64,000 bases of DNA from a virus. Below the pieces are notes generated by a model that saw only the letters and a list, made by a program, of their open reading frames with translations, was not told the origin of the DNA and did no database searches. The number at the start of each line of letters is the position of its first letter. Positions within the stretch are counted from its first letter, which is position 1. The position numbers were made by a program, and so were the translations under genes. Below are positions 12,644 through 53,469 of the stretch, one piece after another. The stretch spans positions 28,203 to 92,202 of the IMG/VR virus record IMGVR_UViG_3300037261_000033; one strand, 5' to 3'.

Positions 12644-12730
12644 CGGATGGGGTAGGATTCGAACCTACGGCGCGTTACCGCGCGTCAGTTTTCGGGACTG
12701 TTGCGATAAACCGGACTCCGCCACCCATCC
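12644..12730 (-). tRNA. tRNA-Ser(CGA), atypical C33, CCA not encoded
   Basis: GGATGGG/CCCATCC acceptor stem, G73, loop CCCGAAA, long variable arm GCGCG-GTAA-CGCGC, T-arm GTAGG-TTCGAAT-CCTAC. Confidence 0.85.
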
Positions 12731-22552: not shown

Positions 22553-25402
22553 TCATTTTCGACGTTCCAAATAGTCTCGCGCCAATTGCTTCACCCGTTC
22601 CCCGGCGCTCTGTGAGAAGTCCGGCGCGACCCGCGCCTTATCCGGGTCAACTACGCTTCGTGCCTGCGCGCTCTTTAATCCTAGCACGCTCGCTATTGTC
22701 GGGTCGCTCCCTGCGTCGCTGATTAAGAAATACGCGATCACGCCGCCGATAAGTCCATCCCGGTTGAGGCGACCAATACAGTTGCCAACTATCGCGACGC
22801 GTCCATTGCGGCGTGTCACTAATGTTCCCAACTCGTTTGTCACGCACCACACTTGCTCGTTTGGATAGCTTTGCGTTTTAGAGAATGCGTTTGCCTTACT
22901 TCCTCTCGGTAAGCTCGCCTCCTTAGCTGACGCGATGTAAATGTCGAATACGTCCCTTCCGTTTTTCGTCTTCTGTTTTCGTTCCGAAATGTTCGCGCTG
23001 AACCCGCGCCGAACGCACAGCGATTGCAAGCGGTCTAAGAATTTCTTGTTTGTGTTCGTTACGCGAATGACGTTTTTGAGTTGTTGGCTTTTCGCTCCGT
23101 CCCCCATGCGGACTCCGTGTAAGAAATGCGTTAGCTGCGCGCGGGTCATTCCGTCGAGTAATGGGCTCATGTTTTTGTCGAAGTACGCTTCGAGATGTTG
23201 GCAGCCTTTTTCGGTGCGCTTGATTACCGGCTCCATCACGCCATCACCGGCTCTCAACTTCTTCCTCTTTTTATACACTGCGCTTGCCGTGCGATCTAAT
23301 CGCTCTCCGATGATTGCTTTACTGTGACCAGCGGAAATCATTTCCTCCAATGTTGCGATTTCGGAGGCACTCCAACGCTGCAAGTTGCCTTTAGGAATTT
23401 GGTAAATGTTCATCAACGTCCCGTTTTGGTTCCGATGTTGATACCGTGCCCATGTCACTCCGCAATCGTTGAGACATCCTACTAAGTCTGCATTCCAAGG
23501 TTGGTGCGCGGCTTGGTAAATGCATAATTGTCGCCCGTTGAAATAGCCATCTGTTATGAACCATCCTAAAAGGCGTAGCTCGCTGTCTGACAGCGGTAAT
23601 CCTGCCGCGCGCTCGTCACCGCTCACTGGAATGAACCGTCGCGCCTGACACGACAGTTTACTCGCTTCTTGAAAGTCCCAGTCAGACCTACCAACGCCCA
23701 TGACGGTGCGCGTTTTTCGCCTAACGACCATGCGGTGATTGCCAGTCACTCGAATATCCGTCTTTTCCGTTTTCGTTGCGAACATCTCCTCGTTGTCAGC
23801 AAGCGGGCGCGTTATTTTATCCGTTGCTTTTACCCATCGAATACTTCCGTCAGATGCATTAAACCCTGCCACTTCATCTCCGATATTTACCCGATCAGGC
23901 CCGACGAATCCTGTTCGCGTTAATATTTCTGTATCGCTTGATAGGCATTGATCGTGAACGCCCGGCGACCAATCTAGTTCGCCGAACACGCACGTCCGGC
24001 TTACCGTCTGCAAACCGTCGATCCCGAGTCCAGAACGGAGCGACATTATCAGTACGTCGCAGCCGTCGCGACCTTTACTCTTGAACCGCCGTATCGCTTC
24101 TGCTTTCTGCGCAGGTGATTCGCTTCCCGTGTAAAGAAGTGGTCTGCAATCCGCCAAGCGTTCGAGATACACGCTGTAAACTTCCCGGTGCCATCCGAAC
24201 AAGACGATCTTCTCTCCGCTCTCCGCTAGCATTCGCACGAAGTCCGCCACGAACGGCGCTTTCGATACGCCCGTCGCCTGCCTCAACTTTATGTCAAACT
24301 CGCGCGCTGCTTGTCCGCTTTGCAAGAATGTTCCTTCAAGCACGAGCCGAGCTAATTCCGTAGCGTCACTTTGCACTTCTTTTAGCGCGTCGGCGTTGTG
24401 CGGTATCGTTGCGATATCTCGCTGCACTTGCGGCAGTTCTAATCCTACTTCTTCGCGCCGCCGCCGCAACATCAGGAACTCGTCTCGCAAGTATTGGCCG
24501 AACGCTTCCGGTTCTTTGATCGCGTAATTGTTTTTCCCTATCGGCGTACACCATTCCCGGTTGAACTCGCTCCAATTCGGTACGCGGTCGGGTGAAAGTA
24601 GTTTCAAGATGCTGTAAATCTCACCGCCGTAGTTGTAGATTGGAGTCGCGCTCAACCCCATCGCGTAATCGCACGTCTCACGGATCGCGGTCGCCGCGAA
24701 GTATTTCCCAGTCCCTTGATGTCGTAATTCTTGAACCTCGTCGAAGACGATTGATTTGTAACCGCGCTCGCGTAGCACGTCCGCCCACTTCGCAAGCTTC
24801 GAATACGTGATAATCATTACTGATACGCTCGGCAGCGAGTAGAGCGGCCCGCGCCTTATGATGTGAGTTGTCGCTGTTGGTAAAAAGACTTTAATGAAAT
24901 CGTTCCGCCATTGCTGCGCCAAGTGTGTCGGGCAAACCACGAGTGCCGGTAACGTCCCTTTCGCCGCGAACGATCCAAGCGCAGTCACGGTCTTTCCCAA
25001 CCCTAGCTCGTCCGTCAACAGTAAGCTCTTCGTCCTCATGTGAAGATCGACTGCGACTGCTTGATAATGCCGAAGCGGTTTCGCGAGGCGATAGGTCTTC
25101 GGCTTATAGTCTCGCGCTAGCACCCGTTCCATTTCATCTTGCACTTCGCGGTGTCCGGCGCTGCCGTCGCGTATCAGCCACGCCGTCGCGTCGTCTATCT
25201 CCATCGGGAAACGTTCGAAGAACCAATCCAAATCCCGGCACGTCTCCGGCGTATTCTCAATCGTAATCGCGCTGAACTCGAATTTGTTGATACGCGGGAA
25301 CAGCGCCTTCAATCGTATCCGCGTGTTAGCGCCGCAGAGGATGACGAACTTATTCTCCGTCGTCGTTACTTGTCCGAACGTCTTCACGCGAAGTTCTTCC
25401 AA
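22553..25402 (-). CDS. SNF2-family helicase containing an intein
   Basis: DELGLGKT, DEVQ, LSATP, ELDWSP..Q|intein|CIGRLNR. Confidence 0.92.
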   Translation of the reverse strand: MEELRVKTFGQVTTTENKFVILCGANTRIRLKALFPRINKFEFSAITIENTPETCRDLDWFFERFPMEIDDATAWLIRDGSAGHREVQDEMERVLARDYKPKTYRLAKPLRHYQAVAVDLHMRTKSLLLTDELGLGKTVTALGSFAAKGTLPALVVCPTHLAQQWRNDFIKVFLPTATTHIIRRGPLYSLPSVSVMIITYSKLAKWADVLRERGYKSIVFDEVQELRHQGTGKYFAATAIRETCDYAMGLSATPIYNYGGEIYSILKLLSPDRVPNWSEFNREWCTPIGKNNYAIKEPEAFGQYLRDEFLMLRRRREEVGLELPQVQRDIATIPHNADALKEVQSDATELARLVLEGTFLQSGQAAREFDIKLRQATGVSKAPFVADFVRMLAESGEKIVLFGWHREVYSVYLERLADCRPLLYTGSESPAQKAEAIRRFKSKGRDGCDVLIMSLRSGLGIDGLQTVSRTCVFGELDWSPGVHDQCLSSDTEILTRTGFVGPDRVNIGDEVAGFNASDGSIRWVKATDKITRPLADNEEMFATKTEKTDIRVTGNHRMVVRRKTRTVMGVGRSDWDFQEASKLSCQARRFIPVSGDERAAGLPLSDSELRLLGWFITDGYFNGRQLCIYQAAHQPWNADLVGCLNDCGVTWARYQHRNQNGTLMNIYQIPKGNLQRWSASEIATLEEMISAGHSKAIIGERLDRTASAVYKKRKKLRAGDGVMEPVIKRTEKGCQHLEAYFDKNMSPLLDGMTRAQLTHFLHGVRMGDGAKSQQLKNVIRVTNTNKKFLDRLQSLCVRRGFSANISERKQKTKNGRDVFDIYIASAKEASLPRGSKANAFSKTQSYPNEQVWCVTNELGTLVTRRNGRVAIVGNCIGRLNRDGLIGGVIAYFLISDAGSDPTIASVLGLKSAQARSVVDPDKARVAPDFSQSAGERVKQLARDYLERRK
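22781..23947 (-). mobile_element. Intein (389 aa) with LAGLIDADG endonuclease
   Basis: N-terminal CLSSDTEILT, block B VTGNHRM, LLGWFITDG and FLHGVRMGDG, C-terminal AIVGN followed by C+1. Confidence 0.92.
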
Positions 25403-30306: not shown

Positions 30307-30422
30307 TGGTCGGGCAGGCAGGACTCGAACCTGCGGTGTGGGTTTGTCGCGCCCCAAACGCGATGTCGAACCGCTGACCTACTGGTTATGAGCCAGTCGC
30401 GCTACCAGACTGCGCTACCCCG
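30307..30422 (-). tRNA. Chimeric tRNA-like RNA with Met(CAT) and Pro(TGG) anticodon arms, encoded CCA
   Basis: D-arm GCGC-AGTCTGGTA-GCGC; ACTGG-CTCATAA-CCAGT; TCGCG-TTTGGGG-CGCGA; T-arm GCAGG-TTCGAGT-CCTGC; CTGCCCG-A-CCA. Confidence 0.75.
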
Positions 30423-32493: not shown

Positions 32494-34380
32494 TCATAGT
32501 TTACTCATTTTTGGATGCCACTGTTCCGCACTAAGCAACGCGCCAGCCCATTGAAGGTATTTCCCCTTCTGCGTGCGGTCGCACAAAAACTGTTTGTAGT
32601 CACCCGGCTGGTAGGCCATCAAGTTGAACACGTATTCGAGCGGTATCCACATGCGCCCCGTATAACTCTTTTCGTGCGAACTCCCCCATCGCGGATAAAT
32701 CGTGCGCACGCCACCGTCCCATTCTATTTCAACGCCAGCTATACCGACGCATTCTTTTTCCCGCCTGCCATCGTGTCCCCCGTAACCGCTCCGCGTGTAA
32801 TGCGGTTGCACAACGTCACCCTTGTTCCCGCACCTTATCTTCTTTACCTGAATTATCCGGGGACGGTCTTTTGTCTGGAAGGGTCTACGCCGGTGATCGT
32901 AGTAATCGCTGTAAATAAAGTCGCCTTTTTCAAGACCTGCGTTGCTAGCGTCACGGTATTCTTCCCATGTCTTACTCAGCGTCCCGGCCCCTAACGCGCC
33001 TTCCTCATCTCTTATGAGGTTGAGCCATTCGAGCATGTCGTTCTGGTCTGCTAGATTGATAGGCGGATGCGGATGGAATACTTCGCTCCGGTCGAGTAAT
33101 CCCTGCAAGAGTACGACGACGCGGTTGTATTGCTTTAGGTGGTTGCGCAGCTTTTCAGCGTGCGTGTCGTAATCGAAATTATCCGGCGCGATACGGGTAG
33201 TTTCTTTCTCGTCCGGGATATATCGATTATCTTTCCCGCCAGTCCATCCGCCGTATTTTACGGTGTGCGTTTCGCTGAATGCGTCATCAAACTCTCCCTT
33301 TAATGGTATAAGGCGCGGCTGAAAATCGACGGCGCTCGCGATTCGATAAACTTTCTGGCCGTTCCGAATTAAAAGGTAGGTCGCAAAATTCAGCTTATTC
33401 ATTTCCATGTGCGCCCACGCGTCCCAAATTGTTTCCGGTATCCCGTAATCTTTTTCGTCTCGGCGTACCCGAAAGGCGACGAGGCCGCGCGGTTCTGGTA
33501 ACACTCGCGCCATGCTCTCCGGCTTCGCTACCCATTCGTCGAAGTCTCTCAGGTTGCGGAAATCCATCCCGCCCTTGTCGAAGTCGATCAACGTCTCTTC
33601 GTCCATAAAGAGTAGGCTTTGGCGCACCGTTATCTTAGTATCTGGCCCCGCCGCTTCGCCGTCCGCGATCTGCTTCACCTTCTCTTGCAACCCGGCGTAA
33701 ACTTCCAGCGTGAAAATCTTATCCTCTACCACGCGCAGTTTTTTCTGCATCGCGTAAAGATTGTTCAATTCGGAAAGCATTAAACCCTTCGCGAGTCCGG
33801 CTTGTTCCTTCGCTAACAACTCGATGCTCTTTACCACTTCGGGTATTTTCTTTTTGAGGCGCGTTAGTCGTCCCTTTTCTTTCGCGGGGTCTAGCGTCCT
33901 GATCGCGAGCGCGAACGGTGCTGATTCGGTTGGCGTGAATTGTGTATTACTCGGCGGGAGCGCGTTAGCTTTCTGCGCGTCCTCGTATAGCCGCCGCGTC
34001 TGTGCTTCCATCTCCTGTCGGACTTCCTCCATCCGGTTTTCTAACGCTACTCTCCACTCCGGCGCTGGACGGCAGTTCATCATGAAATCTTGGAAGCTGA
34101 TTTGCTCGGTGTATTCCGACTCTCTCTCGATTCTGTTAAACTGGATGTGATTGCTGGCGACATGTTCGACGCACATCAAATGCTCGTGGAATTTCGGCTC
34201 GGCCTTGCGCTTCTTTCCGCGCCGCTTGCTGATGTGCCGCCCGGCGTGGCGATAGATTGTATCTGACGGGTCTTCCTCCACGCGAACCCAAAACCATTCG
34301 CCGATCTTCGGTAAACCACTCTCGATGCTCTCGGTCTTAACCGGCTCGATAACTGCGAGTGATTTTGATTCCTCGTTCAT
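32494..34380 (-). CDS. Large hypothetical protein with coiled coil
   Basis: 628-aa intact ORF with an ATGA-coupled start. Confidence 0.8.
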   Translation of the reverse strand: MNEESKSLAVIEPVKTESIESGLPKIGEWFWVRVEEDPSDTIYRHAGRHISKRRGKKRKAEPKFHEHLMCVEHVASNHIQFNRIERESEYTEQISFQDFMMNCRPAPEWRVALENRMEEVRQEMEAQTRRLYEDAQKANALPPSNTQFTPTESAPFALAIRTLDPAKEKGRLTRLKKKIPEVVKSIELLAKEQAGLAKGLMLSELNNLYAMQKKLRVVEDKIFTLEVYAGLQEKVKQIADGEAAGPDTKITVRQSLLFMDEETLIDFDKGGMDFRNLRDFDEWVAKPESMARVLPEPRGLVAFRVRRDEKDYGIPETIWDAWAHMEMNKLNFATYLLIRNGQKVYRIASAVDFQPRLIPLKGEFDDAFSETHTVKYGGWTGGKDNRYIPDEKETTRIAPDNFDYDTHAEKLRNHLKQYNRVVVLLQGLLDRSEVFHPHPPINLADQNDMLEWLNLIRDEEGALGAGTLSKTWEEYRDASNAGLEKGDFIYSDYYDHRRRPFQTKDRPRIIQVKKIRCGNKGDVVQPHYTRSGYGGHDGRREKECVGIAGVEIEWDGGVRTIYPRWGSSHEKSYTGRMWIPLEYVFNLMAYQPGDYKQFLCDRTQKGKYLQWAGALLSAEQWHPKMSKL

Positions 34381-53032: not shown

Positions 53033-53183
53033 TGGATGAGCGGGCCGGACGCTATCCCGGCGAGAGTCAGGCAGGATTTGAACCCGCATTGAACTATGGG
53101 CTTTAGGCCAAGGAGAGCTTACCATCTCGTTTCCCCACTCGCGTTCGTCAACGCTACGTGTCTGCTTTCCACGTCGCCGCTCA
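53033..53183 (-). ncRNA. Nested tRNA-like RNA ending in CCA
   Basis: TGAGCGG/CCGCTCA-T-CCA outer stem; CGTG/CACG arm; two T-arm-like hairpins (GCGGG-TTCAAAT-CCTGC and GCCGG-GATAGCGT-CCGGC). Confidence 0.6.
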
Positions 53184-53469
53184 CTCCCGCATCGCTGCGA
53201 AAGGTTTTTGAAAGTTTTTGCCGCGCCTTATGTTCCGTCGTCTGATTCGCGCAGAAGTCCGCGATGTCCCAAAGACAGTTACATTCGTAAATCGTGCCCG
53301 TGGCCGGAAAGAATCCGTAGCAACGCCAGCGCGCGAACCATTTGATTTCCCCAAGAATCGCGCCGCCCTCTTTAATTGTGACGTTCCAAATTTTCGTCTT
53401 GCGATCTGGCGGTGTCGGTACTTCCCGCATCTCGATCCATTTGTAATTCTTGGACGGATTCATTATCAC
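53119..53469 (-). CDS. Conserved phage hypothetical protein
   Basis: KTKIW...LGEIKWFARWRCY...CLWDIADF; its C-terminus runs into the ncRNA. Confidence 0.65.
   Translation of the reverse strand: MIMNPSKNYKWIEMREVPTPPDRKTKIWNVTIKEGGAILGEIKWFARWRCYGFFPATGTIYECNCLWDIADFCANQTTEHKARQKLSKTFRSDAGVSGDVESRHVALTNASGETRW

Follow-up and report, generated by a model that had tools for sequence, protein, structure and literature searches.

The window analysed here is a stretch of 64,000 nt from a 92.2-kb IMG/VR phage record, which is complete and has terminal repeats; it covers bases 28203-92202 of that record. The locus under study lies on its minus strand between two co-oriented genes, an upstream open reading frame, P0001 (53119..53469, minus strand, 116 aa), the last ~30 codons of which enter the RNA described below, and a downstream gene of unknown function, P0002 (52065..52994, minus strand, phrog_19042). 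No promoter or terminator match was found at the locus between them. The minus-strand sequence from 53183 to 53033 agreed exactly with the description given in the first-pass annotation, which had taken these 151 nt for a tRNA nested within a tRNA, and all of the stems listed there are present.

The RNA gene was delimited as 53036-53184 (minus strand), the extent of a full-length match to the covariance model described below. It is closed by helix P1, the 5' strand of which (GTGAGCGG, 53177..53184, model positions 1-8) pairs with the 3' strand at 53036..53043 (CCGCUCAU). The outer stem TGAGCGG (53183-53177)/CCGCTCA (53043-53037) forms a perfect 7 bp, is the sole such inverted repeat in the area and is followed by T-CCA; a G·U pair between 53184 and 53036 lengthens the closing stem to 8 bp (GTGAGCGG/CCGCTCAT). 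The CCA after the helix occupies 53033..53035. A CG linker (53175-53176) leads to the P2 hairpin, ACGUG-GAAAGCAGA-CACGU (53156..53174). This is the arm that had been described as D-like, CGTG-GAAAGCAGA-CACG; it is present and actually has 5 bp (ACGTG/CACGT, 53174-53156). In the window, P2 follows P1 after 2 nt, keeps all of its stem pairs and has a loop identical to that of the family, and an A-U pair replaces the consensus G-C that nearly all other members have, a compensatory variant also present in the family member L180. The P3 hairpin, GCCGG-GAUAGCGU-CCGGC (in DNA letters GCCGG-GATAGCGT-CCGGC; 53044..53061), abuts P1. Its loop is a variant found in 3 of 112 members, the family consensus loop being AGUAGCGN.

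Between P2 and P3 lies a hypervariable middle domain of 94 nt (53062..53155), which is the unaligned insert region of the model. It contains a small hairpin, GCGUU-GACG-AACGC (53141..53154), that appears in both the MFE and the centroid folds and is not conserved in the family, and a degenerate tRNA-like unit (53063..53140). Directly 5' of P1, at 53184-53203 (minus strand), an 8-bp hairpin with a GCGA loop is predicted (CUUUCGCA-GCGA-UGCGGGAG).

Taken whole, the element is not unusually stable. The 151 nt gave an MFE z-score of -0.8 to -0.9 and their 281-nt context a fold z-score of +0.8, and RNALfold at z <= -2 had no match on the locus. When the inner 77 nt were removed, the remaining 74-nt shell folded as a cloverleaf with z = -2.6, an energy that only 0.2% of windows split in the same way across this genome reach. 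It is its homologues, and not its energy, that set the shell apart from chance.

In a standard run over the window, ARAGORN found tRNA-Ser (12644-12730) as the sole tRNA, and Rfam at gathering thresholds reported this gene together with a tRNA at 30310-30422 into which 42 nt are inserted. At 53033-53183 ARAGORN reported no tRNA until thresholds were lowered to 80% with introns allowed. The outer unit had no match to the Rfam tRNA family (RF00005), the inner unit scored 17 bits (gathering score 29), and a permissive Rfam tRNA search touched 53063-53128 only. No tmRNA was detected in the ARAGORN tmRNA mode, and there was no Rfam tmRNA match. The proposal that the outer part is itself a tRNA was abandoned on these negative ARAGORN and Rfam results and on its two conserved loops, which are unlike D and T loops.

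Homologues were sought with patterns that avoided the inner unit. The first pattern took from the outer unit only its 3' strand and the stem of its 3' hairpin, with the loop left free, and retrieved eight IMG/VR contigs, six of which also had the outer 5' strand and P2 60-150 nt upstream. The second was the P2 hairpin alone (21 nt, two degenerate positions) and was found in at least 120 IMG/VR contigs. Among the matches listed, 116 of 127 P2 instances had a flanking helix of at least 6 bp and a 5-bp UAGCG-loop hairpin where expected.

The order of parts in the family is P1, CG linker, P2, variable middle, A, P3 and the P1 3' strand. P1 is a closing helix of 7-12 bp, free in sequence and always paired. 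The P2 consensus is GCGUG, loop GAAAGCAGA, CACGC, and both its loop and its stem are near-invariant, an invariance that is partly due to ascertainment because P2 itself was the search query; copies found by the model alone have P2 loops with long insertions between GAAAGC and AGA. P3 is a 5-bp hairpin with UAGCG within its 8-nt loop (AGUAGCGN) and no spacer before the P1 3' strand. The element as a whole is ~90-330 nt long, with a median of 133 to 151 nt. The middle domain measures ~40-250 nt and is wholly different between phages. Words complementary between loops and middle domain, as for pseudoknots, were no commoner than in shuffles. One subgroup (L090, L103, L110, L171, L178, L191 and L195) has a common middle domain ending ...AAGGCTTTGTCGGCCT.TGAGGATAGC; within subfamilies, then, the 'variable' domain shows conservation of its own and may be functional. 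Some phages carry two copies of the element per contig (L117, L123, L132, L133, L138 and L154), and in several of these the P2 loop of the second copy is diverged or expanded.

The pairing of the family was then assessed by covariation. Standard pairs made up 99.8% of pair cells among 22 short members, and 72 cells had changed on both sides; none of 500 shuffles was as good, and sliding the partner left 30-42% paired. In an alignment of 105 rows, 97.5% of pair cells were paired and compensatory changes occurred at 15 of 18 pairs, covering all P1 and P3 pairs, with P1 accounting for 8/8 modelled pairs where element boundaries had been set by extending P1, which favours P1 pairing. The P2 and P3 hairpins predicted each other independently, and the model alignment gave the same picture.

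A covariance model of 109 positions, R1, was built from other phages, with the window excluded. It gave 105 matches in 100 sources and a further 32 in a second set. Against the window it aligned over positions 1-109 to 53036-53184 (minus strand) with 60.8 bits and an E-value of ~6e-12 to 7e-11, and this was the one copy in the whole 92-kb genome. The idea of a class of phage RNAs, for which the first-pass annotation had proposed a covariance model and had named the lack of homologues with compensatory changes as refuting, was thus borne out, since such homologues were found. What it had seen as a discrete, cloverleaf-like structured element also holds: a closing helix of 7-8 bp, 2 nt, a hairpin in the D position and a hairpin in the T position stacked on the helix, with a tRNA-like unit nested in between. 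The CCA end did not prove to be a feature of the family. Among 116 members the 3' tails vary, and most are neither CCA nor U-rich, with U-rich tails in 10 of 115.

In the family there were 32 G·U pairs against 6 A·C, an excess that points to the minus strand as the one that is predicted to fold here. Wherever a tRNA gene was found no more than 400 nt from an element (14 genes), both lie on the same strand. A good sigma-70-like site was present just upstream in 14 of 106 members (~13%), compared with 2 at each of two control positions.

By sequence comparison, this structured RNA family is widespread, occurring in at least 120 phage contigs and often among tRNA genes. The G+C content of carrying contigs at the element ranges from 39 to 73%, and the flanks are unrelated. 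At L098 a tRNA gene flanks the element on either side, at distances of 5 and 6 nt, and at L104 the element starts 2 nt after a CCA. No conserved protein neighbour was found, the largest cluster comprising 7 of 115 loci, and an integrase-like neighbour occurs at 3 of 115. Cultured carriers are the Pseudomonas phages Persinger, PotUPM1, Orimi01 and Orisa01-03; Persinger (MT613935) has a full, unannotated copy at about 23287-23389, 10 nt after its integrase gene. In PotUPM1 (OQ633420, element at about 33929-34117), Orimi01 and Orisa01-03 (PP179326-PP179329) a 'hypothetical protein' CDS is annotated over the element, which is probably a false gene call. Partial matches were found in phiAH14a and D14H, and plasmids gave one match (Brucella). 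A blastn search of 5,426 E. coli genomes found none, the short conserved blocks limiting detection by blastn.

Rfam 15 gave no match to the shell of the window element or to that of 14 further members, and literature word searches with the motif sequences returned no match. The family may coincide with an unnamed candidate among the 8,495 of an IMG/VR screen (PMC10690425). Other RNAs were noted near some members. A Proteo-phage-1 RNA (RF03044, 71.7 bits) lies at L096:7056-7136(+), ~210 nt upstream of a family member; a T-arm-like hairpin, CCCTG-TTCGACT-CAGGG, stands just before P1 in L096, L102 and L193; and ARAGORN reported a permuted tmRNA at L052:4657-5101, on a phage contig of 177 kb on which a distant homologue of P0001 is also encoded.

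The tail of the 53119-53469 reading frame overlaps the first 65 nt of the 151-nt element. Three proteins, P0123-P0125 (64-81% identity), are the sole close homologues of P0001; with lengths of 80-88 aa they finish near residue 85-88, ~30 residues before the stop of the window frame. On this comparison, the P0001 tail past residue ~85-88 is non-conserved read-through, and since the homologues are shorter, the true intergenic gap is ~210 nt. At 53185-53215 (minus strand) the P0001 stop at the homologues' position has been lost; a 30-codon read-through follows, with its TAA inside the tRNA-like unit. Excision of the RNA at P1 would leave the P0001 message without a stop codon.

Among 44 distant relatives of P0002, the junction with the upstream gene is mostly 50 nt or less or overlapping, and in distant relatives of P0001 other genes follow immediately. 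Given these tight junctions, the element in this phage would be a lineage-specific insertion at the end of P0001 that removed the stop codon of that gene. The closest relatives came from Logan assemblies (P0003, 70% identity; P0123, 81%). Searches with the flanking proteins returned distant loci only (44 via the P0002 family, 8 via the P0001 family), all without the element, and among cultured phages there was no match to P0002 and none to the 900-nt region.

The inner unit appears to be tRNA-derived, and it is degenerate and optional in the family. It has an intact, canonical T-arm, GCGGG-TTCAAAT-CCTGC (53071-53087), and a good 3' acceptor strand, CTGACTC (53064-53070), together with a weak D-arm, a mismatched acceptor and no anticodon arm; the anticodon position holds a 3-bp stem with a 5-nt loop. 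The Rfam alignment, which is the source of the 17 bits on 53063-53128, has no arm at all at this position and puts the 5' acceptor at GAGATGG (53128), a second and equally imperfect reading. The inner T-arm and 3' acceptor match a tRNA-Met from a gut phage, itself unrelated, at all of their 24 nt, and the D-arm region also aligns. The same T-arm/acceptor type is also found in tRNA-Lys and tRNA-Ile of other organisms, and an identity of the inner unit as tRNA-Met was therefore dropped. Searches with the inner T-arm returned only ordinary tRNAs in unrelated genomes.

Among the matches listed, 7 of 116 members, the window element among them, have a T-arm motif (GGTTCRANNCC) in their middle domain, where we estimate that ~0.1 would be expected by chance; L107, beyond these 116, has it as well. 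Rfam tRNA scored above its gathering score inside L186 and L192 and below it in the other members with the motif. L186 and L107 have a D-arm and a T-arm without a real anticodon arm, like the window under Rfam's alignment. The 'tRNA-within' part of the earlier description thus recurs in 7 of 116 members, but as an optional unit that is mostly degenerate and not as a defining one.

The composite at 30307-30422 (minus strand), which had been put forward as a second member, is not matched by R1, which finds a single copy in the 92-kb genome. It is tRNA(CAU)-like, with an Rfam score of 43.8 bits despite a 42-nt insertion in the variable region; its 5' acceptor strand is two bases short, and ARAGORN at lowered thresholds reads tRNA-Pro(UGG) on the 3' part. 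It resembles the product of two tRNA genes that have been fused or rearranged. The 22 nt that precede its CCA recur unchanged in L100, within a long tRNA-like sequence that follows an orphan P2 hairpin. Patterns taken from the other two tRNA-like genes of the window retrieved no relatives of the phage.

The family was compared with known RNAs of similar setting. GOLLD and ROOL (RF01998, RF03087) are phage-encoded and often found beside tRNA arrays (PMC5737381; PMC12286853), and GOLLD has a variable linker beside its conserved part, sometimes with tRNAs (10.1101/2024.12.08.627333; PMC5737381). They resemble the new family in being phage-encoded, in their tRNA-array neighbours and in having no known protein partner. 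They differ in being 500-800 nt or more in length, with pseudoknots and cages, whereas the new family has a median of ~130-150 nt and three core helices. Their Rfam models had no match at E <= 10 in the window and two members, or at E <= 0.1 in 12 loci. RNAC and RNAD of T4 are small stable RNAs from the phage tRNA region with an unknown role (PMC3014915); they are known only in T4-like phages and are likened to the new family by description alone.

In the YrlA type of Y RNA, paired ends enclose a tRNA-like domain with D and T arms and no anticodon arm (PMC4201824), and the insert type of the window, L186 and L107 is YrlA-like. YrlA has a Ro60 gene within 4 kb and carries GNCGAAN0-1G (PMC4201824), whereas the 92-kb genome has no TROVE/Ro60 gene (PF05731) and the 5' region of the window element, GGCGACGUGGAAAG, does not fit this motif, which was looked for near the 5' end. 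Moreover, the tRNA-like part is optional in the new family, and the conserved loops differ. Identity as a Y RNA was rejected on the lack of a TROVE gene in the genome and on the misfit of the motif.

In topology the family agrees with tRNA and tmRNA: a terminal helix of 7 bp is followed by 2 nt, by one hairpin and then by another of 5 bp that stacks on the helix. tmRNA is further alike in that its anticodon side is replaced by a large domain. The core of the new family has no T- or D-loop consensus, no conserved CCA and no tag reading frame. In kind, the element is a tRNA-associated structured phage RNA that falls outside GOLLD/ROOL and YrlA by those membership tests that apply, with RNAC/RNAD likened to it by description.

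We consider it likely that the minus-strand segment 53036-53184 belongs to a widespread, apparently undescribed family of structured phage RNAs, tRNA-shaped, cut out together with tRNAs and stable. P1 stacked on P3 would imitate the acceptor/T-arm helix, with P2 standing in for the D-arm. From this tRNA-like topology and from the position in tRNA arrays at tRNA-like spacing, we infer that RNase P would cut at the 5' side of P1 and that the tRNA-maturation enzymes would release the RNA, which would then accumulate as a stable, trans-acting RNA. The invariant loops suggest a specific partner, and a conserved factor of the host or the phage may recognise both of them; the free middle domain would be cargo. 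The family RNA would have no decoding role. RNase P measures tRNA with a fixed 12-bp ruler, and the P1 length of 7-12 bp fits it poorly, which argues against such processing. The variable length of P1 and the lack of a conserved CCA argue against a strict tRNA mimic.

An engineered tRNA scaffold attributed to Ponchon and Dardel (2007) reportedly carries foreign RNA on its anticodon side and is processed and protected like tRNA. That scaffold is an artificial design, and a scaffold for the new family is a hypothesis. The RNA may act as a tRNA mimic or decoy, as the first-pass annotation had proposed. A fuller version, in which a large class of undescribed RNAs from tRNA arrays, with the window element as its first recognised member, is matured by host enzymes and presents a hypervariable cargo, sometimes a tRNA-like unit, on an invariant two-loop core that binds a universal cellular factor, as a natural tRNA scaffold or as a decoy against tRNA-acting host factors or defences, is offered tentatively, with a modest chance of being right.

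Other explanations were weighed against this family of free, tRNA-processed RNAs. That the element instead acts in cis within polycistronic transcripts, as a processing or stability module or as a processive antitermination or termination signal acting on RNA polymerase or nucleases, is unlikely. It would account for most members having no promoter of their own, for their position in gaps between same-strand genes and for the window element, which has co-oriented genes on both sides and matches neither a promoter nor a terminator; it sits poorly with members inside tRNA arrays and also after an integrase gene, with the lack of a common downstream gene, and with a closed multi-helix fold and free cargo domain that are unlike known put or terminator elements. 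The tails, U-rich in only 10 of 115 members, also speak against it, and a terminator role as such was rejected on their rarity and on the missing terminator match at the window. We regard as quite improbable that the conserved ends serve mobility at the DNA level, as in a selfish mobile cassette, a recombination or attachment site or an ssDNA structure, even though P2 and P3 are near-identical across phages of 39-73% G+C with unrelated flanks, the window copy seems to have been inserted with the loss of a stop codon, and the Persinger copy lies 10 nt after an integrase gene. This genome has no integrase (PF00589), and integrase-like neighbours are limited to 3 of 115 loci; apart from P1 the element has no terminal repeats, and it occurs once in the genome; and both the surplus of G·U relative to A·C and the shared orientation with tRNAs indicate an RNA made from one strand. 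The inner 22-mer, taken as a possible attB, occurred in 0 of 185,579 bacterial species genomes, and an attP with a tRNA 3' fragment was discarded on this absence and on the lack of PF00589.

Our own first reading was of chance stems around a dead tRNA gene, with only the inner pseudogene real. The whole-element z-score of -0.8, the overlap of the reading-frame tail with the 5' part and our estimate that a perfect 7-bp flank pairing would be expected ~0.3 times are all compatible with it. It was overturned by covariation and by the outer parts, which alone retrieve homologues in many unrelated phages, and by the 60.8 bits of a model built without the window, and we now give it very little credence. 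A working nested tRNA or suppressor, with the inner or outer unit aminoacylated and decoding, has a next to negligible probability. The canonical T-arm, the CCA after the outer helix and the near-complete tRNAs in the middle domain of two members would fit such a molecule; the inner unit, however, has 17 bits where 29 are called for, its acceptor is mismatched and it lacks an anticodon loop of 7 nt, the anticodon position of the outer unit is taken by the tetraloop GACG, the CCA is not conserved, and ARAGORN is silent until its thresholds are set to 80% with introns.

Few structured phage RNAs of unknown function have been described, and those such as GOLLD and ROOL have turned out to be structurally remarkable. 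The present family is common (at least 120 IMG/VR contigs), spans phages that differ in type and G+C content, and has no entry in Rfam 15. Its presence in cultured Pseudomonas phages makes it directly testable, and R1 can prevent such loci from being miscalled as genes or broken tRNAs. Near-invariant loops, carried on a tRNA-like frame, suggest that a specific and conserved partner exists, and the location in tRNA arrays ties the family to the question of what phage tRNA-like molecules are used for beyond decoding.
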